A DNA stretch of 31,073 bases from a virus (IMGVR_UViG_2602041669_000008), one strand, 5' to 3'. Shown: positions 1,663 through 24,459, counted from the first letter of the stretch. Made by a program: numbers and translations. The notes: a model not told the origin generated them from the sequence alone.

Positions 1663-1974
1663 ATGAAACTAGGTAATTTGTTAGCCGCAGCTATCGTTTT
1701 AACGATAACTGCATGTGCCGGAAAAGCTGAAAAAGACCCGCAATATGTAGCCGCAGAGAAATGTGCAGATTTAGTTATCACAAAATCAAAAGCTCTGGCA
1801 GAGAAAGGCATCAGTGGAAAATACGTACTTACATCAAAACTGCGTACAACTTCGACGTCTGATGGTCCATTCACATCAACACAAATCAGAGGCATTCCAT
1901 ATGCAACCTCTACGTTTCTTGATAACGGTAATGAGGGGAGTGCCTGGAGACAATGTATGGGGCCGCTATTGTAA
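1663..1974 (+). CDS. Putative lipoprotein (about 103 aa)
   Basis: Track ORF 1657-1974; second ATG at 1663 has AAGG 7 nt upstream; N-terminus MKLGNLLAAAIVLTITAC has a hydrophobic core and lipobox-like ITAC; AT-rich gene. Confidence 0.55.
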   Translation: MKLGNLLAAAIVLTITACAGKAEKDPQYVAAEKCADLVITKSKALAEKGISGKYVLTSKLRTTSTSDGPFTSTQIRGIPYATSTFLDNGNEGSAWRQCMGPLL

Positions 1975-2838: not shown

Positions 2839-3399
2839 TTAGTGCATGATGTTTGCCATCTCATAGGCGTCAGCCAGTAACTCCATCTCTGACTTTTTCA
2901 GCAAGGTGAATTCTTTCTTGCCTCCAACCACACCATCGGCATGAACAGGGACCAGCCAGGGGTATTTTTCTCTTACTTCAGCCGGTGCTGCATGCTGGTG
3001 GTGCCATCTACAAAGTGGCAACTGCTTTTTGTGACAACCCGGCGCGGTACGACCGGAGATATGGTGCAGAGACACCTCTTCAGATATTACTCCATGCATA
3101 TAGCAGGCAATGCAGGGGAGAGCGCCAAGAGCATTGGCTATACGCCGTTCCTCCGCCGTCGGTGTTCGTCCCTTCAAGCCACGAGATTTTATTTTTACCG
3201 CACTTTTCCGCGTTTTGCTGGCTGGTGGGCGCTCTTTCTGTTTAGCGATACGGCGGTCGATAGAATCCCGCATTTTCTGATATTGCGATTCTCTCCAGGC
3301 GGGGTCAGCCAACTTTTCCCGTTGCCGAGCGATCGCTCGTTCTCTGGCTGCCTTCTGCCACTCGCGGCGCTGTTCAAGTTTTTGTTCGATTGTTTTCAT
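2839..3399 (-). CDS. ref: Ref-type HNH nuclease (186 aa; basic disordered N-terminus, Cys/His HNH motifs)
   Basis: ATG 3397-3399 in frame with track ORF 2839-3477; motifs CIACYMHG...HHISGR...CHKK...CRWHHQH; length and position next to cre match P1 Ref. Confidence 0.75.
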   Translation of the reverse strand: MKTIEQKLEQRREWQKAARERAIARQREKLADPAWRESQYQKMRDSIDRRIAKQKERPPASKTRKSAVKIKSRGLKGRTPTAEERRIANALGALPCIACYMHGVISEEVSLHHISGRTAPGCHKKQLPLCRWHHQHAAPAEVREKYPWLVPVHADGVVGGKKEFTLLKKSEMELLADAYEMANIMH

Positions 3400-3404
3400 A
3401 TGGC

Positions 3405-3430
3405 AAAAAAAAGGCGGCCTAATGGCCGCC
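3405..3430 (-). terminator. Strong intrinsic terminator on the minus strand ending 6 nt before the ref ATG
   Basis: Plus strand reads A8-GGCGGCC-TAAT-GGCCGCC, so the minus-strand RNA is a perfect 7-bp stem followed by U8. Confidence 0.7.
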
Positions 3431-3490
3431 AATGATGTCAAGGAGTTAAGTAATGGCAACGTCTTCGTAGTTGACAAAAACTGCGGCTAA

Positions 3491-3514
3491 ATTATAGCAA
3501 TCAATTAGAGCAAT
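3491..3514 (-). promoter_or_regulatory. C1 operator-like site (ATTGCTCTAATTGATTG, 14/17) abutting a TATAAT -10 on the minus strand
   Basis: Direct read; -10 TATAAT is plus 3491-3496 reverse-complemented; operator 3498-3514. Confidence 0.55.
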
Positions 3515-3580
3515 GGTAGATATTTTATTTATCGCGAATCACATTTTTTCACTTCAGTACCTGTGTGCTATACTCCTTCT

Positions 3581-3650
3581 TGATTGATTGGATGCGGAAT
3601 ACAAACCCGCTCTTTTGTGCAGCCTGGCTCCTTGCCAGGCTTTTTTATTT
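3581..3650 (+). ncRNA. Candidate small RNA (about 70 nt): extended -10 promoter, 5' motif UGAUUGAUUGG, intrinsic terminator
   Basis: TGcTATACT at 3566-3574; motif at 3581-3591; stem GCCTGGC/GCCAGGC (3622-3640) followed by TTTTTTATTT; no plus-strand ORF. Confidence 0.35.
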
Positions 3651-3956
3651 CATCATGGAAGCTGTTAACGCTTTGGATCTTGCTGAACTGATTGAAAGGG
3701 CATTGTTTACCTTACCCAGGAGTTCGCCAAATTCCGCCATCACTCTAGTAAGCCCGCGCCGCGCTTCCTCCTCCGTTGCATTCATCACAAAATGTTCAGC
3801 ACTCCGCATGCTTTTAACGGGGAACGCAACAGATATCGAGTCGATATCAGGCATCCTATCGCTCAACTTTACGGTGACAATGACAGATGGTGACTGAATT
3901 TGAGAGCTTACAGACAGCACCACATATTTTCCGTCTATTTTGAAATCCTTCCGCAT
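3645..3956 (-). CDS. Hypothetical protein (103 aa) directly downstream of cre
   Basis: Track ORF with protein-like composition; GGTGA 4 nt upstream of the ATG; the overlapping plus-strand ORF 3565-3897 is less protein-like. Confidence 0.5.
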   Translation of the reverse strand: MRKDFKIDGKYVVLSVSSQIQSPSVIVTVKLSDRMPDIDSISVAFPVKSMRSAEHFVMNATEEEARRGLTRVMAEFGELLGKVNNALSISSARSKALTASMMK

Positions 3957-4006: not shown

Positions 4007-5038
4007 CTAGTTGCCATCTTCCAGCAGGCGCACCATTGCCCCCGTTTCACTATCCAGGTTACGAATGTAGTTCATGACAATATTTACGTTGGTCCAGCCA
4101 CCAGCTTGCATGATCTCCGGTATTGAAACTCCGGCGCGGGCCATATCTCGCGCGGCACCGACACGGGCACTATGTCCAGACCAGGCCAGGTATCGCTGAC
4201 CAGAGTCATCTTTTGCCCCGTAAATCAATCGGTGAGTTGCTTCAAAAATCCCTTCCAGGGCGCGAGTTGATAGCTGGCTGGTGGATGATGGCGCGGCAAC
4301 ACCATTTTTTCTGACGCGGCAAAACAGGTAGTTATTCGGATCATCAGCTACACCAGAGACAGAAATCCATCGCTCAACCAGTTTAGTTACCCCCAGGCTA
4401 AGTGCCTTCTCTACACCAGCGGTGCTAACCAGCGTTTTCGTTCTGCCAATATGGATTAACATTCTCCCACCGTCAGTACGTGAGATATCTTTAACCCTGA
4501 TCCTAGAAATTTCGGCTATACGTAACAGGGTGTTATAAGCAATCCCCAGAAATGCCAGATTACGTATATCCTGGCAGCGATCGCTATTTTCCATGAGTGA
4601 ACGAACCTGGTCGAAATCAGTGCGTTCGAACGCCAGCGCCTGTTTTGCACGCTCACCGGCATCAACGTTTTCTTTTCGGATCCGTCGCATGACCAGTGAA
4701 ACAGCATTGCTGTCACTTGGTCGTGGCAGCCCGGACCGACGATGAAGCATGTTTAGCTGGCCCAAATGTTGTTGGATAGTTTTTACTGCCAGACCACGCG
4801 CCTGAAGATATAGAAGGTAATCGCGAACATCTTCAGGTTCTGCGGGAAACCATTTCCGGTTATTCAACTTGCACCATGCCGCCCACGACCGGCAAACGGA
4901 CAGAAGCATTTTCCAGGTATGATCAGAAAACGCCTGGCGATCCCTGAACATGTCCATCAGGTTCTTGCGAACCTCATCACTCGTTGCATCGACCGGCAAT
5001 GCAGGCAAATTTTGGTGAACGGTTAACGAATTAGTCAT
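4007..5038 (-). CDS. cre: Cre site-specific tyrosine recombinase (343 aa)
   Basis: Translation is near-identical to canonical P1 Cre as I remember it; differences noticed: N-terminus MTNSL instead of MSNLL, E39D, two A-to-S changes, C-terminal D-to-N; loxP lies about 820 bp upstream. Confidence 0.97.
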   Translation of the reverse strand: MTNSLTVHQNLPALPVDATSDEVRKNLMDMFRDRQAFSDHTWKMLLSVCRSWAAWCKLNNRKWFPAEPEDVRDYLLYLQARGLAVKTIQQHLGQLNMLHRRSGLPRPSDSNAVSLVMRRIRKENVDAGERAKQALAFERTDFDQVRSLMENSDRCQDIRNLAFLGIAYNTLLRIAEISRIRVKDISRTDGGRMLIHIGRTKTLVSTAGVEKALSLGVTKLVERWISVSGVADDPNNYLFCRVRKNGVAAPSSTSQLSTRALEGIFEATHRLIYGAKDDSGQRYLAWSGHSARVGAARDMARAGVSIPEIMQAGGWTNVNIVMNYIRNLDSETGAMVRLLEDGN

Positions 5039-5430
5039 TTATTATGCGTGATTTTAACAGTTAAGCCTTGTTCATGAAGTATCTCATCAATAATTCGAAT
5101 CACATCCCCTGGTAGATCATCGTTCTCGAAATATCTGTGATCGGGGATTTCTACAGTGATTGGGGTTGCTGCTTTATGCAAAATCCGAACAATCTTTTTT
5201 TCTTTTTTGCATGTTGCATATTCAGCCTCTTCGATATCTATCCAGCTCGCACCATCAAATTGCTGGTAAACCCGAGTGTATAGTAAGCGATTTCGCTTTA
5301 CTTCTTCTGCTAACTCCCAAATTGCAACAGCCATAGCACGTTCATTTTCATTCGTTCCAGGGTTAGCAGCTTTTTGTTTTGCGTCGTTCAGTAAGGCGTT
5401 TACCTTGGCATCTGTCAGGCCATTAAACAT
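5035..5430 (-). CDS. Hypothetical protein (131 aa) translationally coupled to cre
   Basis: Track ORF; GGTGA 3 nt upstream of the ATG; stop TGA overlaps the cre ATG (ATGA); no family recognised. Confidence 0.6.
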   Translation of the reverse strand: MFNGLTDAKVNALLNDAKQKAANPGTNENERAMAVAIWELAEEVKRNRLLYTRVYQQFDGASWIDIEEAEYATCKKEKKIVRILHKAATPITVEIPDHRYFENDDLPGDVIRIIDEILHEQGLTVKITHNK

Positions 5431-5449: not shown

Positions 5450-5671
5450 TTAAATTATTGTTTTCAGCAGAGTGTACAGGATTGGCTCTGCCTTTACCTG
5501 GTTATGGTTCTCGTCATAGAAACGCCAGCGACCGCGCGTGCGTTCTATTTTCTCTTCACCGCGAGATAATGACAGTTGGTAACTATCACGCTCAAACCAT
5601 TTTGCCCGCCAGTAACCACGGTTTTTCTCAAGCTCAAGATGAGTGGACACTTTAGCAGCTGAATATCCCAT
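5450..5671 (-). CDS. Hypothetical basic protein (73 aa)
   Basis: Track ORF; GGTGA 3 nt upstream of the ATG, preceded by CCAATCAATCA; first gene of the unit ending in cre. Confidence 0.5.
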   Translation of the reverse strand: MGYSAAKVSTHLELEKNRGYWRAKWFERDSYQLSLSRGEEKIERTRGRWRFYDENHNQVKAEPILYTLLKTII

Positions 5672-5768
5672 TTTTCACCTCTGATTGATTGGTGGTGCTA
5701 AGTGCGCTACGCGAAATCTGGAGCACTAACACTGCCAACATTTCGCAGATTTTACGTAGCGCAACCTT

Positions 5769-5860: not shown

Positions 5861-5894
5861 ATAACTTCGTATAATGTATGCTATACGAAGTTAT
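5861..5894. other. loxP: loxP site (13-bp inverted repeats around an 8-bp spacer)
   Basis: Exact match ATAACTTCGTATA-ATGTATGC-TATACGAAGTTAT. Confidence 0.98.
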
Positions 5895-8816: not shown

Positions 8817-8981
8817 ATTGGCAGCCTCCTTAGACGTTGGTATGTAACCACCGCAGAAGAGACCAATCTTGCTGGCGGTGGACTGTACGGAGTTGGCCTT
8901 ACTGGCGTCCAAGGTAACCAGCCTACCCGAAGGTAGCCCCATACAGCCCACCATTGTAGAGGTGTGCGTGTACGCCGATAC

Positions 8982-9125
8982 AAAAAAAAGACGCGAGCGG
9001 CGTCTGTATCGCCTTAGACTTAAGCGGGAGGCCAATCCCGGCACCCGTTTTAATGAGGTGCCTGATAAGCATAAACCGAAAATGCCTCAAGGCGCAAGAG
9101 GTCAGGCTCAATGTAACATCGGTAG
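8982..9125 (-). ncRNA. Candidate c4-like structured leader/antisense RNA upstream of icd-like copy B
   Basis: Begins just below the operator at 9136-9152; hairpins GGCACC/GGUGCC and CGGGA/UCCCG; ends in stem AGACGC/GCGUCU plus U8 (8982-9005); no ORF. Confidence 0.35.
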
Positions 9126-9155: not shown

Positions 9156-10640
9156 TCATTCATTAAGCCATGCCAGAGCTTCATCAACCTGCGCTTCGTC
9201 TTCGACGCTAAGCACTTCATCCTGGGGAACATAATCCGCCAGCATAGCGAAACAATATGTATCCCAATGGTCTGGTGAGTGCAGGTTGAGTTTTTTCTTC
9301 ATATCCTCCTTACTCATCACCTTCCATTGACCTGCGGAGTTAATCCCTACAGGGATTTTCGACGCTTCCTCAATAGTTTCATTACCCTTATCCAGTCTCA
9401 TGCGACCAGATTTTACGGCCTCTGCGGCTTGAACGTTGGCATAAGCACGTTTATCAAAGTACAGGCTCTTATCTTCACGGCTATGCATCTTTTTACCCCA
9501 GCGTATACGCTGTACGGTAATACCATAATACTCGTACATCAGATCCGCCGTTGCTTTACCCAGGCCATCGCCGTCTATCGCTATGGTGATATTTGGGAAT
9601 CGCTCAGGATTACATTCTGCGAAAATTTTGGCGGCAAGCTGCGTTTCTGTAACGTCTGTGTATTCCAGCATTCGATAGTTGATTACACGGCGTTTATTTC
9701 GCTGGCCGGACACCATCATGATATTGATAACGGACTTATCCCGTCCCGTACCACCAGCAACGTCCACACATGCAAGCCAGCCCCATCCTTTTGCAATCTT
9801 GACTTTCCGCCGCGTTGCACGTTCAACCTCATCACGTCCAAGAAGGAAGCCATCCTGTGATTTAGGGAATAGGCCGCGTACCTTAATCATGTACATAGGG
9901 TTATCACGCCCGCCGTACTCCGCCAGCTTCATTTTGATAAATGCTGGCGTTACCAACGGTGATTCCTCACTGTTAAGCGTGATCGCCGTATAAACGCCAT
10001 CAGGGTTACCAGGACGCTTGGCCAGTTTATGGTGTGTATCGTAGAAATAGCCGCTTGGGCGTGTAGGCTGTGACAGCAATAAGATGCGGTTATCCTGTCC
10101 GGTAAGAGCACCGGTGATGATACCGAAAGCTCTATCACTGACACCGGAGGCTTCATCGATAATATACAGAAGATGATCTGCGTGTTCACCGGCGAGAGCT
10201 TCTTCACTTCCCAGACGAAAGCCCTTCGGTACTACAGTCCATACACCTTTACCAGTAATCTCATAGAAAGCGGTTTCTGTCAGAACAAAATAATCAGCAA
10301 GCCATGGGAAACGGCTGGTGGCAGTAGCCCAGTTTATCTTGATGTACTTGAATATACCGGTCATTACCTGCTGAATTTTGTTCGCAACGATAATGGCACG
10401 GGCACCTGGATACATGATTATGAACAACATGATCATGATAGAAGTCATGTCTGATTTCCCGGTACCGTGACCAGACGAAACAGATGTCTTGCTACCCTGT
10501 TCCTGCACAGACTCAATAATCAGATCCTGCTGCCAGGTAGGTGTTTTGCCGAACAAAACATCAGCGGCCGCAATCCAGTCATAACGATATAGCGCCACCA
10601 GCTCGCGCCAACGTGGATCCGTTACGCAACTTCTGGCCAT
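9156..10640 (-). CDS. pacB: Terminase (pacase) large subunit PacB (494 aa)
   Basis: Track ORF; Walker A-like GHGTGKS and Walker B-like LLYIIDEA; start overlaps the pacA stop (TAATG). Confidence 0.85.
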
Positions 10641-11833
10641 TAATCATCATCCCCGTATAGCTTGCGGGTAACTTCTTCGTCTTCCTCCTCGTCTTCGTCC
10701 AGGTCTTGTTCCAGCCATGGGTCGTTTGATACACCTTCAGTATCAACATCTCCATAACCGCCTGTATCAACGATATCGGCGATTTCTTCCCTACGCTGCT
10801 CAATCCACAATGCGGCATCGGCGCGGCGGTTGGCGGCCCGTTCTCGCGCAACTTTGTCCAGATCTTCAAGAGAAGGGCCACCGACGGCTGTTTGCCTTTC
10901 CTCATCATCGGTATTGGTCTTAGGAGCACGCAGATCGGCTTTGATTTGCTCCAGCATCAGGGGCGGCACTTTCCCGCCATGCGCCTCGATGAATTCAGCT
11001 GCTTCCAGCACTGACCAGTTATTTTCACGCTTTCGTTCGTATGCCAGCTTAACAATGCCAGCTTGCCCCATAGACAAAGCGTGCTTTTCCGCCTCCCGGC
11101 TTTCTTTTCGATAGTTATTCCGGATGCTGTAAATGGTGTTGATCAGGCTGCTTATCTGCGCGGAACAGCTGTTTAGCATGCTCGCGATACGGTATTCAGG
11201 CGGAGTACCTTCATCATCGTCTTTTTGCTGATCGCGCATTTCCTGCACCAGGCGAATACACGTATCCCTGGCGTTCTCCAGCATAAGGAGATGAGAAAGA
11301 GACTTTTCCAGAAGAGTGGTTTCCAGAACATCGGCCCCGGACCGACGCAACATAGCGCGCGCGGCCTTCCGCGCTTCAACGTTATCTATCAGGTAATCGC
11401 CAGCTTCGAATTCAAAGCGTTCACCATCATCATCCAGGGTGTCGCGTTCCAGGCGATCACGTAAGGTCCGGTGGGCGCGGGTGATCACGTCATGATCATC
11501 AGAACGATCATTTATGCGCTTATTCTGGCGCTTCGCGTTCTCGACTGCGGCACTGACAACAGCATTAACTCTTTGTTTTTCAGCCATTTCAGCCACAATG
11601 TGATCACCTGCACGTTGATCATTAGCGTGATCAATGATCATGCTTTTTAGTGGTTTTCTGACAGGCTTATTTGGCTTACGGCTGTCCGCTGTTCCGGTGT
11701 CTTCTTTGAATGCACGGAGATAACGACGTGCGGTGTTTGGGTTGAGATTAAACTCGGCGGCATATTGTGCGATGGTGTAACCACCATCTCGCGCCAGGCG
11801 AGCAAAATTCTTCTTGTGATCGTCCCAGGTCAC
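10640..11833 (-). CDS. pacA: Terminase (pacase) small subunit PacA (397 aa); contains the pac site
   Basis: Track ORF; GTG start with AAGGAAG 5 nt upstream; pac hexanucleotide repeats lie inside its 5' third. Confidence 0.8.
11482..11640. other. pac: pac packaging site: 3 + 4 TGATCA-type hexanucleotide repeats, each with a Dam GATC
   Basis: Repeats at 11482, 11493, 11505 and at 11601, 11616, 11628, 11635; matches the P1 pac architecture (from memory). Confidence 0.8.
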
Positions 11834-11919
11834 TTATGCTTCCTTTCGTATAAAACTCTTTTTGACGCGAGGGTAACGAAAGTCACATGTCAAAAGGCCC
11901 GGAACGGGCAAGCAATCAA

Positions 11920-12372
11920 TCAGATACGTGCGGATGTGGCATTACCGTAATGACGGTGCTGACGGACCACCTTATTGAAAAGTTGACGCGCCATCACCCA
12001 AGGCTGGTGCTCCCGGCGTTCCTTTTCGTCCTGCGTCATATAGAGTTCGTTCTGGAGTTTTTCATCAAACCGGCGCGGAGCGCGGCTGCGGCGAAAGAAT
12101 TCAGGATTCAGAGAGTGGATCTGAAATCTACGTGGGCGTGTACTGTCATCAATCAAAACAGACGAATACTTAGACACAGCGATAGCCTTTAAGCGCAGAT
12201 AAACATCGCGCTTATCGACATCCAGATGCGGGTATTCCTTTTCAAGAATTGCTGCGAGATCTTTCGCTGATAGAAGAGATTTAGTGCGGATCATGTAATC
12301 CGCAATCTCGTACGATGTTATTCGTGAGTGATTTATTTCCATGAAGTGGCGTCCCTGCCAGTTAAGTAACAT
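11920..12372 (-). CDS. lpa: Putative late-promoter activator Lpa (150 aa)
   Basis: Track ORF; GGTGA 4 nt upstream of the ATG; directly upstream of pacA and behind a C1 operator, as for P1 gene 10; sequence itself not recognised. Confidence 0.55.
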   Translation of the reverse strand: MLLNWQGRHFMEINHSRITSYEIADYMIRTKSLLSAKDLAAILEKEYPHLDVDKRDVYLRLKAIAVSKYSSVLIDDSTRPRRFQIHSLNPEFFRRSRAPRRFDEKLQNELYMTQDEKERREHQPWVMARQLFNKVVRQHRHYGNATSARI

Positions 12373-12460: not shown

Positions 12461-13504
12461 TTATCTAACGCTCGACGAATGACTTGTGATAGCGCCGACT
12501 CCAAGCGCGTAATCAAAGAACAATCGTTGATGCATCGCCAGCCTACCGTGCGTCTTCTCCCAATTATCGCGGTCACGCTCAATATCACGCTGGCATGACT
12601 GGCACAGAGGAACAGCATAAATGTCATGCGCGCATAATCGACTATGACGAACGATATAAGGCGTAATGTGAGCGCCAGCTCCCGCAGCTCCACAGCCACA
12701 GCATGGACGGGAAGCCACAAAATCCATGTACTCGGGCAATTTTAGCGATTGAAGTTTTGGTATTTTGAAATGCGCCATGCCAGGGTCGGCGTCAACATCC
12801 ACAGGGCATACTTTTGCACGCATCGGCGCGGCGCGTTCTTCCATCATCTGAACATATGCTGTAGCGCGATCGTCATACGGGCGAATATCCGCCTCTTTCA
12901 GAGGTCCGCTATCCTGCGGAGTAGCCTTCATCTTATTTATTGATATGCGGCAGACTTCTTCCGGCATCAGGTGCATCATGTTGCGCATGAAAGCCCACCA
13001 GCACAGCTCCTGAATACTTAAATCATGGCTATTTGAAAGGCCCATTTCCTGACGGGCGACATCCAGTATCCAGTTAACGCGATTATTGTGCAGCGTTTCT
13101 TTCAGCTCATTAAAACCACGCATCCGGTAATGGTTATCGTGATGCCAGCACAACAACACCGCGCTATTGTCTCGTTCAGCGTGGACAATATGGTTGTCAC
13201 ACCAACTACGATCTGCGGCCTGGCATTGACCCTCTTTCCTACGCAACCACGCCACCAGCGCGTCAATTCCACCAATACGGCGAAACAGTTCATCGCTGTT
13301 AAAAAACGGCTGCAACGCCTCATTTGTTGCCATGGTTTGCTCGGTAACAACGAGGCCGTCTTCCATGTGCTCGATTAACTCACGCGGCACCGGCTCCATA
13401 ATAAATTTACGGCCAGCCTCCACCAGCTTTCTGACCTCCTGATCCACTTTGAACGTGGCGAGGCCAAGCTCTTTCTGTACAAAGGGAGTAATTACGGCTT
13501 TCAC
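12461..13504 (-). CDS. Hypothetical Cys-rich protein (347 aa); positional equivalent of P1 pdcB
   Basis: Track ORF; GTG start with AAAGGTG 4 nt upstream; no family recognised. Confidence 0.6.
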
Positions 13505-13531
13505 ATCACACCTTTAATCACTGATTGGGCT

Positions 13532-21697: not shown

Positions 21698-22423
21698 CTA
21701 CTGAATACGCTCAAACTCGATTACCCAAACCCAGGGATTAGCACTCCAGCTTTCTTCGCCGTAGATGGATTCCCACAGGCGCTGGAACGCAACCTTGGCC
21801 ATTGCGAAATCCCCCTTGGGAGTAAGGAATGTTCCCGGGTGATCAGGAAGCAAACTTCCAGCAGGCGGAACGCCCTCATCCCTTGCATCGCATTCGCTGA
21901 TATCGTTCAACCGCTCAACGCGCACGTTGGTAATTTCCAACAGGATGCGTGATGCCCATCGCGGCATGTGAATTGATGGACGCCACCCACCATCAAACTT
22001 TTCATTCACAGTGTGAGGTTTCCAGTCGGCATCATCGGGTATCGACCATAAACCGTAATCACCAGGCTTTTGCTCACAACTGGCCCGATAAATCCTTGCT
22101 GCGTTCTTCTCATCGCCACGACAAAGGTTGTCGTTCCAGTCCACACTGCAACCATCTTCATTGCCTAATATCGCCCATGTTTCACGAACCCAAATTCGAT
22201 CGCCGACGATACCAAAGGGGCAATTGAAAACACTGCTTACACCATCAGCCCCGTACCACTGAAAACCTGCACCAATTTCCCTAACCATCACTGGTGCTTC
22301 TGGACCAACTTCCGCAGGCTGATTTTTCATTATCCGCCGCGCCTGCGTTTTCCTTCCTTCGAGGATGGCTCGGACCATCTCATCGTTGAAAATCATGCCG
22401 CGCTCTTTCACTTCGCCTTTCAT
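21698..22423 (-). CDS. ASCH/PUA-like domain protein (241 aa)
   Basis: N-terminal motif FNDEMVRAILEGRKTQARR resembles the ASCH signature; AGGGGGA upstream of the ATG. Confidence 0.55.
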   Translation of the reverse strand: MKGEVKERGMIFNDEMVRAILEGRKTQARRIMKNQPAEVGPEAPVMVREIGAGFQWYGADGVSSVFNCPFGIVGDRIWVRETWAILGNEDGCSVDWNDNLCRGDEKNAARIYRASCEQKPGDYGLWSIPDDADWKPHTVNEKFDGGWRPSIHMPRWASRILLEITNVRVERLNDISECDARDEGVPPAGSLLPDHPGTFLTPKGDFAMAKVAFQRLWESIYGEESWSANPWVWVIEFERIQ

Positions 22424-22432
22424 GCATCCCCC

Positions 22433-22519
22433 TTACCCATGCGCGACGATGCCGCCAAAAGTGATAGAGAACAGCCAGAAATAGATCGAGGCCATAATGA
22501 TTTTGAATGCCGTGTTCAT
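22433..22519 (-). CDS. Candidate 28-aa hydrophobic peptide (type I toxin-like)
   Basis: MNTAFKIIMASIYFWLFSITFGGIVAHG; AGGAG 8 nt upstream of the ATG, preceded by CCAATCAATCA; stop is 9 nt before the next ATG. Confidence 0.3.
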   Translation of the reverse strand: MNTAFKIIMASIYFWLFSITFGGIVAHG

Positions 22520-22528
22520 ATTTTCAGC

Positions 22529-22578
22529 TCCTGTGATTGATTGGATACATGCCGCGCCTTACGGCATGTTTTTATTTT
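22529..22578 (+). ncRNA. Candidate antisense small RNA overlapping the RBS of the 28-aa peptide gene
   Basis: CATATT -10-like hexamer at 22517-22522; motif TGATTGATTGG at 22534-22544; stem CATGCCG/CGGCATG (22548-22568) followed by TTTTTATTTT; no plus-strand ORF. Confidence 0.3.
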
Positions 22579-22601: not shown

Positions 22602-22618
22602 AGATTTATTAGAGCAAT
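22602..22618 (-). promoter_or_regulatory. C1 operator-like site (ATTGCTCTAATAAATCT, 16/17)
   Basis: Direct read; overlaps the stop codon of the HAD-like gene. Confidence 0.6.
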
Positions 22619-23124
22619 TATTGTTGATGGAGAAGCGCGTTTTCATACTCCCTGACCATTAACGTAAGTACGCCGTGACTCCTGAAAACACGCGCCACTT
22701 CAATCTTATCTTCCAGCGCGAACGCAATTTTACTTAGACCAATTTTCTTCAGGAGATCAATCTTTGCTGGACCGTCATTTCTGTCATCGGTGGCAGGACG
22801 CATAGATAGCAAAGGCTCCGCCCCATTTGTTACGTGCTTACGCAACCAGGCTCGTGTTTTATCCCTGGCTATCTCACAGCGCCCGGTTACAAACCAGAGG
22901 GTGTAAATGCCGGACAACTGGCGCACCATATCAATAACTGGAGTGATGGGAGCATCAGTGTCACAGGCAAGGTTAAACTCGTTCCAGTGCTCTGTTAATG
23001 CACCTTTGCCAGGTGGTGGAAGTAAATGCAGCCTGTCTTCCGTTGCCTCTGATATCGTCCCATCAATATCTACTATGACGATGTACGGACGTTCCTGGTG
23101 TGCGTGTTTATTGAAAATACTCAA
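22618..23124 (-). CDS. HAD-superfamily phosphatase-like protein (168 aa)
   Basis: Motif IVIVDIDGT (DxDGT); TTG start with GAGGAGG 4 nt upstream. Confidence 0.65.
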   Translation of the reverse strand: MSIFNKHAHQERPYIVIVDIDGTISEATEDRLHLLPPPGKGALTEHWNEFNLACDTDAPITPVIDMVRQLSGIYTLWFVTGRCEIARDKTRAWLRKHVTNGAEPLLSMRPATDDRNDGPAKIDLLKKIGLSKIAFALEDKIEVARVFRSHGVLTLMVREYENALLHQQ

Positions 23125-23196: not shown

Positions 23197-24459
23197 TCAG
23201 CGAACGTAAATAGTGCCGCCGTTCTCTTTTTCCCATGCATCGCTACGTGCATAGCAAACATCGAGAAGTCTTCTTGCCGCAGTTTCCTCTAAACCCAATT
23301 CGACAACCAACTGCTCATGACGGCGGGTAACCACATCAAACAGGGTATGCAGCCCTTTAGTTGCCAGATCATCAATGAATTCCGGTTCGAACGGCAGCTC
23401 TGCATCTGCCAACATAACCTCTTGCGCCCACTCAACTCGACGGACCAATTCCGGGCGACGGCTTTCCATCTCTTTACAGATCAATTCATGGAAGAACTCT
23501 ACCCAACCTTCCGGCTGGAACTCGCGGAAAATTGCCAACGGCTGGAAGTTTGGCATCAACCATTCGTTGATTCGGATATCAATGGCATAGCCCATGTCGC
23601 AGCAGAACTGATAAGCAAAGTCCAGCTTAGAAACGATATAAGGACGCTCGTTATTGAACTCTTTAGGCGATGAGATCCCATAAGCCAGGAGGCGCGGGAA
23701 GAAGGAGATTTGCCCTAACGTCGGATGAAGTTTGCTTGCAGGGAAACGGCGCTCAGTAATGCCATACATTTCCTTCTTGAGCGTCGCAAATTTGGCATTC
23801 TCATTAACCAGCGCGGTAACCTCTGCTTTTTTATTAGCAAATGCCACGCGCGCCTCGCTTGCATCTTTAATAGTTTTTTTGAGCTGTTGGTTAAGGTCGG
23901 CGACCTGCTTACGCAGTTCCTGTCGCTCGCTTTTAGCTTTGTTATAGCGTTTCTCAAGGTTAAAAGGATCAAGTTTCATGATCTCTTTATATTGAGATTT
24001 TAGCGTTGAAATCTGTGAGTTCCGCAGTTCAACCATCGCGGTCATTTCATTGAGTTTTGTTTCCAGCTCAATGCTTATACGTTCGGCATTATCAGCACGC
24101 TGGTTGGCGTCATGCGTCGCATCGTCGATCGCGTCCTGTTGCTGGCGTTTCAAATGTTCAATTTCCAGCTGAAGCTCTTCAATTTCTTTACCCTTCAGAC
24201 CGAGATCCAACTGCATATTTTCAGCTGCATCTACCAGGGAGTTATGGCTATCAGCTTCTGCGTTATAAACATCAATAAGCTGTGCGTGAAGCATCTCCGC
24301 TGACTGAACCGCATTATCAAAAAAACGTGCTGTGAGGTCATCACAACTAACGCGGCGTTGCGCGGCCCGGATGTTCTGGATAATGGCCGGGATACCGGCA
24401 TTCAGGACATCAGGGATACATACATTTTCGATTGATTGGTTTTGTGCTGAAGTGCTCAT
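23197..24459 (-). CDS. Hypothetical protein (420 aa; coiled-coil N-terminal half)
   Basis: Track ORF; CCAATCAATC lies within the first 10 codons. Confidence 0.65.
   Translation of the reverse strand: MSTSAQNQSIENVCIPDVLNAGIPAIIQNIRAAQRRVSCDDLTARFFDNAVQSAEMLHAQLIDVYNAEADSHNSLVDAAENMQLDLGLKGKEIEELQLEIEHLKRQQQDAIDDATHDANQRADNAERISIELETKLNEMTAMVELRNSQISTLKSQYKEIMKLDPFNLEKRYNKAKSERQELRKQVADLNQQLKKTIKDASEARVAFANKKAEVTALVNENAKFATLKKEMYGITERRFPASKLHPTLGQISFFPRLLAYGISSPKEFNNERPYIVSKLDFAYQFCCDMGYAIDIRINEWLMPNFQPLAIFREFQPEGWVEFFHELICKEMESRRPELVRRVEWAQEVMLADAELPFEPEFIDDLATKGLHTLFDVVTRRHEQLVVELGLEETAARRLLDVCYARSDAWEKENGGTIYVR

Follow-up and report, generated by a model that had tools for sequence, protein, structure and literature searches.

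The window and the copies of the motif

The stretch of viral DNA analyzed here (the window, 31,073 nucleotides, one strand of IMGVR_UViG_2602041669_000008) belongs to a phage-plasmid of the P1/P7 type, with 94–99% identity to P1, P7, SJ46, and RCS47 in a BLAST comparison against phage records. The P1 plus strand corresponds to the minus strand of the window. On this minus strand lie mat (2008–2796), ref (2839–3477), c8 (3645–3956, with its stop codon at 3645–3647), and cre (4007–5038), followed by an extra ORF of 131 aa (5035–5430) and cra (5450–5671), which heads the cra-(131-aa ORF)-cre transcript; loxP is located near 5870. The genetic c8 locus is assigned to its ORF tentatively. Farther along, again on the minus strand, are pacA (10640–11833), lpa (11920–12372), pdcB (12461–13504, with a GTG start at 13504), pmgT (21698–22423), pap (22618–23124), and pmgS (23197–24459). 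The Pfam and PHROGs searches were uninformative for cra, c8, pmgT, pmgS, pdcB, the 131-aa ORF, and a short ORF upstream of pmgT, which is referred to as sORF27. The Rfam matches in the window were two C4 copies, isrK, and c4-a1b1.

A preliminary description of the window had pointed out an 11-nt motif that recurs on one strand, and the positions and sequences given there were reproduced. The exact motif, TGATTGATTGG, is present on the plus strand at 3581, 5682, and 22534, and the form CGATTGATTGG is present at 24429. On the minus-strand mRNA, the complement CCAATCAATCA abuts the GAGGTG-AAAA-ATG of cra at 5682, and at 22534 it is followed by CAGGAG-N8-ATG of a 27-codon ORF upstream of pmgT, so that the complement is located directly 5' of the SD at both sites, as described. 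The copy at 24429 was correctly placed within the first 10 codons of pmgS, where it covers nt +21 to +30 (codons 7–10). The partial copy reported ahead of the GTG start at 13504 is CCAATCAGTGA, located 24 nt before the start of pdcB, and the oppositely oriented copy reported between lpa and pacA is also present, at 11912–11922 on the minus strand, where it reads TGATTGATTGC and overlaps the stop codon of lpa.

The more general statement, that the motif recurs opposite translation-initiation regions, applies to the copies at 5682 and 22534 but not to that at 3581, where the minus strand carries an SD-like AAGGAG without a start codon or an ORF. The motif does keep to one strand, but this is in part to be expected, since almost every gene in this section of P1 is encoded on a single strand.

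A candidate small RNA gene between c8 and ref

The first copy of the motif (3581–3591, plus strand), whose conserved core is GATTGATTGG at 3582–3591, is located at the start of a compact plus-strand unit. The unit occupies the space between c8 and ref without being antisense to either ORF. A sigma-70 promoter is predicted at 3546–3574 on the plus strand, consisting of the −35 element TTTTCA (3546–3551), a 17-nt spacer, and an extended −10 element with TGc at 3566–3568 and TATACT at 3569–3574, which ends 7 nt before the 10-mer. In the consensus scan, this promoter scores 9/12 with the TG, where the −35 element is weak (4/6) and differs among the relatives. Only one other promoter-like site in the first 16 kb of the window has a TG extension, and no other promoter-like site in this region is followed by a strong terminator on the same strand.

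The terminator is located at 3621–3647 on the plus strand. Its hairpin (3621–3641) has an 8-bp stem with six G-C pairs and is followed by the T-tail TTTTTATTT (TTTTTAT), which gives the unit the anatomy of a Rho-independent terminator. Since the T-run is present on the plus strand only, the hairpin cannot terminate c8.

The predicted transcript bounded by these two elements is a candidate trans-acting sRNA of ~66 nt (3582–3647, plus strand), corresponding to complement(1829..1894) of P1 AF234172. It consists of a 5' single-stranded seed, GAUUGAUUGG, a first stem-loop, SL1 (nt 9–32), the linker UUUUGUG, and the terminator hairpin with its U-tail. The predicted fold of the RNA (67 nt as folded) leaves the 5' end free and has two hairpins and a linker rich in U; its energy is −23.2 kcal/mol (z = −3.15), and nt 1–8 of the seed are unpaired with a probability of 0.6–0.9. 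No 10-mer of the sRNA other than the seed has three or more extra copies in the window. The sequence CAAAAGAGC in the linker was considered as a second seed and rejected, as its nine copies in P1 are spread over coding regions, as could be expected by chance.

Conservation and distribution of the unit

The intergenic region between c8 and ref was compared among 80 related viral contigs, which provide 54 unique sequences. The sequence GTGCTATACT is unchanging in the 54 unique relatives, where the sequence upstream of it is highly variable, and from GTGCTATACT through the terminator the region is almost invariant across the 80 loci. The 10-mer GATTGATTGG carries no substitution in any of them. 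The 7 nt between the −10 element and the 10-mer (CCTTCTT) occur in five variant haplotypes (CTTTCTT, CCTTTTT, CCCTTCC, CCTTTCT, and CGTTCTT), which amount to at least nine substitutions. The first T of the 11-mer, T3581, is a C in one relative, which indicates that the conserved core is the 10-mer. On the minus strand, the SD-like AAGGAG is broken in some relatives that keep the plus-strand −10 box; therefore, it is not a conserved SD.

The substitutions within the sRNA are found mostly in loops, with nine at unpaired positions, four in stems, of which two preserve wobble pairs, and none in the seed. The seed, predicted to be accessible, is more strictly conserved than the other unpaired positions. 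The terminator stem is unchanged in the 80 viral loci, and a copy on a Cronobacter plasmid has one C-to-U change at the closing pair of the terminator, where a U·G pair is kept. The same consensus structure was predicted for 11 variants of the sRNA. The covariation analysis gave no compensatory pairs and two pair-breaking singletons in a family that is too uniform (at least 90% identity) for such a signal.

A search with a covariance model found one copy of the sRNA per genome, at 98–102 bits, in the window, P1, and the Cronobacter plasmid, and no paralogue. The unit is present in 697 P1-like plasmids from Escherichia, Salmonella, Klebsiella, Shigella, and Cronobacter and in 18 phage records, and none of these carries an RNA annotation at this position. 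No family of Rfam 15 matches the sRNA, even at E values up to 10, and blastn against plasmids and phages gave only copies with at least 90% identity and no more distant homologues. The literature searches for the motif in a relevant context, for the sequence of the sRNA, and for sRNAs of P1 gave nothing relevant.

Predicted target sites

The 12-nt seed was scanned against positions −40 to +30 of 106 P1 start sites (TIRs), and five TIRs stand out: sORF27 at −16.6, cra at −15.0, pmgS at −13.3, lxr at −12.6, and pdcB at −12.0 kcal/mol, with the next site at −10.1 kcal/mol. With composition-matched shuffled seeds, the best value was reached in 0.3% of the trials and the second-best in 0 of 300, where these statistics are not independent of the discovery, because the sRNA was found through the motif. 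The 5' end of the sRNA is perfectly complementary to CCAAUCAAUC(A), which is located directly 5' of the SDs of cra and sORF27, and the perfect matches at these two sites extend over 10–13 nt.

The predicted site in cra (5682–5692, minus strand), second-best of the 106 TIRs, is CCAAUCAAUCA at −21 to −11; the SD GAGGUG (5676–5681) and the AUG (5669–5671) both lie 3' of it on the mRNA, and the site and the leader are unchanged in the 80 relatives. The predicted site in sORF27 (22534–22544, minus strand), the best of the 106, is (AU)CCAAUCAAUCA at −25 to −15 in the Op88-controlled leader of pmgT, where the complementarity to the sRNA reaches 13 nt in the window (AUCCAAUCAAUCA) and 12 nt in P1. This site is predicted to be mostly unpaired and follows directly after a 5' hairpin of the leader. 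Among the relatives, it varies by a C-to-U change that keeps a G·U pair in one genome and by the loss of one CAAT unit in another.

The ORF behind the second site, sORF27 (22436–22519, minus strand), encodes the 27-aa peptide MNTAFKIIMASIYFWLFSITFGGIVAHG 11 nt upstream of pmgT. Its start is CAGGAG-CTGAAAAT-ATG, and it carries no annotation in AF234172. It is kept in all P1-like loci, with three synonymous changes and one non-synonymous change. Unrelated phages likewise have a small TM ORF ahead of a pmgT homologue, and sORF27 looks like a partner of PmgT.

A third, weaker site is predicted in pmgS (24429–24439, minus strand), where CCAAUCAAUCG occupies nt +21 to +30. Since this position is beyond the five-codon window, the mechanism is less clear there, although the pairing of OmrA/B with fepA at +14 to +22 is a precedent for a site in the early coding region (PMC12692685). 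Ahead of pdcB, the partial copy CCAAUCAGUGA (13518–13528, minus strand, at −24) would form 9 bp with the seed, including one G·U, and an analogous sequence, CCAAUCAGUUA, precedes P1 lxr at −25 and is absent from this window. These two partial copies (CCAAUCAGUG/UU) pair to the seed via G·U wobbles. In general, the predicted pairing stops 10–14 nt upstream of the start codons, that is, at the edge of the region in which initiation is reliably blocked. The predicted targets are all non-essential for lytic growth (PMC10695390).

From the sequence evidence, we give a probability of about one half to the reading that one copy of the motif is the 5' seed of an unannotated P1 sRNA and that the other copies are its docking sites beside RBSs, so that the motif is predicted to mark a small post-transcriptional regulon. 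Of the functions suggested in the preliminary description, that of a small-RNA target is accordingly the best supported, with two amendments: the RNAs detected by Rfam do not carry the complement, and the copy at 3581 appears to be the seed rather than a target. C4, isrK, and the ref leader all lack the anti-motif required of a pairing RNA, and a C4 target with a/b boxes was rejected since neither of the two C4 copies in the window has a word of at least 5 nt in common with the anti-motif.

The same arrangement could be read in cis, where a cassette composed of a hairpin, 2 nt, the unstructured CCAAUCAAUCA, and an SD would serve initiation as a ribosome standby site or an S1-binding enhancer; duplication or recombination would have spread it, and the copy at 3581 would then be a decayed cassette. 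The three exact copies do share this minus-strand geometry of hairpin, 2 nt, motif, and purine-rich SD-like run, and the motif is A/C/U-rich and largely unpaired. The sequences downstream of the copies are also weakly similar between cra and c8-ref (GAGGTG-AAAAATGGGAT versus GAAGTGAAAAAATGTGAT, p = 0.04, uncorrected) and between cra and sORF27 (p = 0.085). However, when 200 nt around each of the four copies were aligned, no homology was shared beyond the 10-mer, nor was any homology outside the 10–11-mer significant, and the local alignment of the flanks gave marginal, uncorrected p-values only. Neutral decay would not spare a perfect 11-mer beside diverged SDs. At 3581, where there is no ORF, it is the SD-like run that varies, whereas the 10-mer and the −10 element of the opposite strand are fixed. 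In addition, the pmgS copy sits in a coding region, and the literature search gave no known enhancer with the sequence of the motif. We regard a cis-acting cassette as quite unlikely.

Recurrence of the motif and chance

The preliminary description had considered the copies too numerous for chance in 31 kb and had proposed a comparison with a shuffled background. This holds for the 10-mer if it is specified beforehand, with four copies against 0.11 expected, but not when any repeated word would have been noticed: some 10-mer with at least four same-strand copies appears in 12% (order-1) to 39% (order-3) of the Markov shuffles of the window, and the full P1 genome has 45 of them against 9–38 expected. 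The copy number alone does not establish a function. Genome-wide, P1 has the same four copies of the 10-mer on the strand corresponding to the window plus strand and one unrelated copy antisense inside dbn. The most repeated 10-mers of the window are words of the C1 operator, which are ahead of Chi-complement words and the motif.

It is the placement of the motif, not its copy count, that carries the signal. Among 410 11-mers that are repeated three times, CCAATCAATCA is the only one with two copies at −40 to −6 of start codons, against ~0.24 expected by chance according to our own estimate. After correction for the look-elsewhere effect, neither the recurrence nor the two RBS placements reach significance by themselves. 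The heptamer CCAATCA is found at −21 to −25 upstream of cra, pdcB, lxr, and sORF27, and 3 of its 18 copies (4 when sORF27 is counted) lie upstream of the 105 annotated P1 starts; we do not use this enrichment as evidence, as it is no better than that of unrelated heptamers.

These figures leave room for a combination of chance and ascertainment, in which the copies arose by slippage of a tetranucleotide repeat in A/T-rich UTRs, the repeat noticed was the one that chances to lie near two RBSs, and the promoter and terminator around 3581 are unrelated to the other copies. The motif is a low-complexity (CAAT/GATT)2.5 repeat, which gains and loses units by slippage, and both events are seen among the relatives, as a gain to six units at the lpa copy in one genome and the loss of a unit in the pmgT leader in another. 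Moreover, ACAAAAGAGC, another 10-mer of the same sRNA, has six copies in P1 that show no pattern. What this explanation does not account for is the third exact copy, which stands at the beginning of an opposite-strand unit bounded by a promoter and a terminator, and the sharp boundary of conservation exactly at the 10-mer. The five best seed matches of the 106 TIRs are also clear of the shuffled seeds. We consider chance unlikely as the origin of the pattern.

The motif might also act at the level of DNA, as an operator for a phage or host regulator or as a promoter element, and a regulator-binding site and a late-promoter element had both been offered in the preliminary description on the grounds that the motif recurs on a fixed strand in regulatory regions. 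The comparison with the known elements rejects the late promoter and gives no support to a regulator site. The eleven annotated late promoters of P1 share ACAAGTGACTT and TANNNT, which are unrelated to the motif. The Lpa site is a 9-bp inverted repeat (PMC10695390), and TGATTGATTGG has no likeness to the ACAAGTGACTT-like repeat at −22 or to the −10 box of the Lpa-dependent promoters; LPpac itself is a distinct element, 25 nt downstream of the lpa copy. The C1 operator, ATTGCTCTAAT, is likewise a different sequence from the motif, which does not match the asymmetric 17-bp form ATTGCTCTAATAAATTT of the operator either. The C1 operator words, ATTAGAGCAAT, with 6–7 copies, form a separate repeat class, and the operators are located 40–75 bp from the copies of the motif. 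The motif is not palindromic and matches no site family, and its position follows RBSs and not promoters, with copies in 5' UTRs downstream of the annotated promoters and, in pmgS, within the ORF itself. No DNA-binding protein of such specificity came up. We judge a site recognized in DNA to be extremely unlikely.

The copy at the lpa stop codon and the hairpin at 22547

The copy at the lpa stop codon (11912–11922, minus strand), which has the same sense as the seed, probably lies outside the system. It is followed on its 3' side by the hairpin GCCCGTTCCGGGC and CTTTT. Among the relatives, its two GATT units expand to six in one genome, and a G-to-A change occurs in another, so that the copy is probably, and most simply, a (GATT)n microsatellite. 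Variation in copy number, by which a microsatellite is recognized, is thus found at the lpa copy, and one contraction occurred in the leader of pmgT, whereas the copies at 3581 and cra show none (0 of 80 vary at either). The possibility that the lpa copy belongs to a 3'UTR-derived sRNA was downgraded for this variability and for its weak terminator (4 T).

Another hairpin with a T-tract, TTTTATTTT, is located at 22547–22578 on the plus strand, 2 nt 3' of the copy at 22534. It could be an intrinsic terminator of the plus strand or, on the minus strand, the 5' stem-loop of the pmgT leader. It ranks as the second-strongest terminator-like site in the region of 16–31 kb, and the two best plus-strand terminators of the window each lie 3' of a copy of the motif. 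The geometry of motif, 2 nt, hairpin, and T-tract is found at 22534 on the plus strand and at the lpa copy on its own strand.

From this geometry it can be supposed that the plus-strand module "UGAUUGAUUG(G/C), 2 nt, GC-rich hairpin, U-tract" is itself functional in several instances. These would be the stand-alone sRNA, a cis-antisense RNA opposite the sORF27 RBS that ends at 22578, and the 3' end of the lpa mRNA, and they would act as sibling RNAs with one seed or as RNase E processing signals before terminator hairpins. The two strongest plus-strand terminator-like hairpins in 31 kb do lie 2–30 nt 3' of copies of the motif, the lpa copy repeats the arrangement on its own strand, and GA|UU, which occurs twice, may resemble the preference of RNase E. 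However, no plus-strand promoter was found near 22400–22546 for an RNA ending at 22578, where the candidate −10 element CATATT is broken in one relative. The lpa instance is the variable microsatellite with a weak terminator described above, and the hairpin at 22547–22569 is equally explained as a stabilizing 5' stem-loop of the pmgT leader. A module of this kind is improbable in our judgment.

Comparison with known regulatory RNAs

In the reading of the motif as a seed with its docking sites, the candidate RNA would belong to a well-known class of sRNAs, here in a paradigm phage. As in OmrA/OmrB (RF00079) and other Hfq-dependent sRNAs of enterobacteria whose seed is 5'-terminal, such as RybB, the gene is free-standing, and the RNA combines a conserved 5' end, single-stranded in the prediction, with an internal hairpin, a U-rich linker, and a U-tailed terminator. 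These sRNAs pair next to the SD or early in the coding sequence of several mRNAs, as is predicted for the candidate. With OmrA, the likeness extends to nine identical nucleotides, AUUGAUUGG, which are nt 10–18 of OmrA. The bodies of the RNAs are unrelated: cmscan gave no OmrA-B hit for the candidate (3380–3720), even at E values up to 10, whereas the same model detected E. coli OmrA at 97 bits and OmrB at 86 bits. The candidate further differs from OmrA/B in being encoded by a phage/plasmid, and the shared 9-mer lies outside the OmrA/B seed, nt 1–10 (PMC2588501). Mimicry of the OmrA seed at known OmrA targets is unlikely, as those targets use nt 1–10 of OmrA.

The shared nucleotides allow the copies of the motif to be read as docking sites for the host OmrA, through which P1 genes would answer EnvZ-OmpR. 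The nine nucleotides of OmrA, whose sequence and family were verified by Rfam, correspond to nt 2–10 of the phage RNA. At the cra site, CACCAAUCAAU, the complementarity to OmrA is perfect over 11 nt (nt 10–20 of OmrA). Against this, the established pairing of OmrA/B uses nt 1–10 (nt 2–10 for cirA and nt 1–9 for ompT; PMC2588501), nt 16–21 of OmrA are in a stem of the Rfam consensus, and OmrB differs within the 9-mer. In addition, the conserved phage copy with a promoter and a terminator of its own is left unexplained, and we judge docking by OmrA to be very unlikely.

The C4 antisense RNA of P1/P7, with its a/b target sites (RF01695, RF03163), resembles the candidate in being a regulatory RNA of the P1 family with a short complementarity to an RBS (7–8 nt in C4), through which C4 blocks translation. 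In contrast, C4 is processed out of the leader of the operon that it targets and has two short boxes, whereas for the candidate a promoter of its own and one 5' seed of 10 nt are predicted; its targets would lie in other operons, and it shows no similarity to C4 in sequence or by model.

Base-pairing RNAs borne by phages include DicF of Qin, IpeX, and AsxR and AgvB of EHEC, which have Hfq-type terminators and act on several mRNAs. The trans-acting sRNAs of prophages mainly target host mRNAs or host sRNAs; unlike these, the candidate has accessory genes of the phage itself as its predicted targets. In type I toxin-antitoxin systems such as tisB/istR-1 and shoB/ohsC, the antitoxin RNA is encoded in trans or divergently. 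The arrangement at sORF27 is similar in that a very small hydrophobic ORF has an RBS region complementary to a small RNA, but sORF27 looks like a partner of PmgT, and the sRNA also matches genes that are not toxins.

Proposed mode of action and significance

The preferred reading can be put as a sequence of steps, in which the complementarity and the anatomy of the gene are read directly from the DNA and the transcription, the involvement of Hfq, and the regulation are proposed. An RNA of ~66 nt would be made from the plus strand of the window (the P1 minus strand) in the intergenic region between c8 and ref, from its own promoter to its own terminator. Its first 10 nt, GAUUGAUUGG, predicted to be single-stranded, would pair with the cra and sORF27 leaders at the upstream margin of the ribosome footprint. 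By analogy with OmrA/B and RybB, pairing within the 30S footprint would lower initiation and probably the stability of the mRNA. Hfq would most likely be involved in the pairing, as with other sRNAs that have a 5' seed; an Hfq-dependent pair is compatible with the U-rich linker and the U-tailed terminator of the sRNA and with an ARN-like sequence, AAUAAAAAC, located upstream in the leader of pmgT. No C1 operator overlaps the promoter; the sRNA might therefore be made in lysogens, where, speculatively, it would damp the leaky expression of accessory genes. A point against this reading is that the sRNA is also fully antisense to any read-through transcript of c8 and might thus act in cis alone.

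A wider network that shares the seed can be imagined, in which a constitutive sRNA, perhaps together with an antisense RNA at the sORF27 RBS and a 3' fragment of lpa, sets the levels of Cre and of accessory operons with cross-talk to OmrA. In lysogens, it would control Cre via cra-cre and several C1- or LexA-controlled accessory operons, and the overlap of the seed with OmrA would lead to the regulation of host mRNAs by the phage RNA or of the phage by OmrA. We hold this extension to be doubtful and put it forward as a long shot.

Few phages have been studied as much as P1, from which Cre/lox comes. The regulatory RNAs known from this phage are, to our knowledge, C4 and the antisense RNA of kilA. 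In a transcriptome study of P1 and Hfq, the development of P1 was slower without Hfq, and no trans-acting sRNA of P1 was named (bioRxiv 10.64898/2025.12.28.696737). The sRNA, if real, would provide a concrete candidate for an Hfq-dependent RNA in this phage. Another result is sORF27, a conserved ORF of 27 aa and membrane type that heads the C1-controlled pmgT operon and is unannotated. If the reading is true, an sRNA near cre would add a post-transcriptional layer to the lysogeny and plasmid maintenance of P1 and would supply an annotation for ~700 sequenced phage-plasmids of the P1 type, many of them with resistance genes.

Results

Nine nucleotides of the seed in the candidate sRNA of approximately 66 nt, located at 3582-3590 (AUUGAUUGG) in the c8-ref intergenic region, are identical to nt 10-18 of E. 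coli OmrA (410-418 of the compared sequence L245), whereas OmrB shows one mismatch to these nine nucleotides. On the opposite strand, the ref leader of ~85 nt (3413-3490, minus strand) extends from the C1-controlled ref promoter to the ref ATG and is closed by a strong terminator, GGCGGCCATTAGGCCGCC plus T8; this arrangement matches an attenuator that was put forward for ref during the 1980s. The Rfam search of this leader gave only weak similarities below the threshold (rseX, 24 bits).

A second word, GCACTT(C)AGCAC, is common to the cra and pmgS copies of the motif (5694-5704 and 24444-24455, minus strand); it lies 2-4 nt upstream of the motif at both genes, with an uncorrected p value of 0.015 among 12 comparisons. 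Between cra and cre, an ORF of 131 aa is inserted (5035-5430, minus strand), which is absent from P1 AF234172 and matches PHROG 20152 (unknown function), and Pfam gave no match for it.

At the motif copy at 22534, a hairpin with TTTTATTTT is located 2 nt 3' of the plus-strand copy (22547-22578, plus strand). The hairpin scores as an intrinsic terminator, and its strand is antisense to every neighbouring gene. It could be the 3' end of a cis-antisense RNA covering the ribosome-binding site of sORF27; a promoter for such an RNA was looked for and none was found. The unannotated sORF27 itself (22436-22519, minus strand) encodes a hydrophobic peptide of 27 aa, MNTAFKIIMASIYFWLFSITFGGIVAHG, and the pmgT start lies 11 nt downstream of it. 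It is conserved, with mostly synonymous substitutions among the relatives, and unrelated phages (L149 and L156) likewise carry a small transmembrane ORF, which in their case overlaps the start of the pmgT homologue.

A (GATT)n microsatellite (11912-11922, minus strand) overlaps the lpa stop codon, with the late promoter LPpac just downstream; the number of units is 2 in most relatives and 6 in the relative L288. On the plus strand of the whole window, the Chi complement CCACCAGC (Chi = GCTGGTGG) is contained in the most repeated 10-mers, ranked after the C1-operator words. These 10-mers occur in 5-6 copies on one strand, which suggests that the Chi sites of the window are orientation-biased.

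A direct repeat of ~1.4 kb is present in two copies that are 91-100% identical (1-~1480 and 7588-~9070), one at the low-coordinate end of the window beyond mat and the other in the pacB-c1 interval, and these copies are absent from the corresponding places in P1 AF234172. The RNAs within the repeat (1271-1356, 1425-1477, 8871-8958 and 8984-9061, minus strand) comprise two C4 antisense RNA genes, one c4-a1b1 element and isrK. The two copies look like additional immI-like antirepressor modules.
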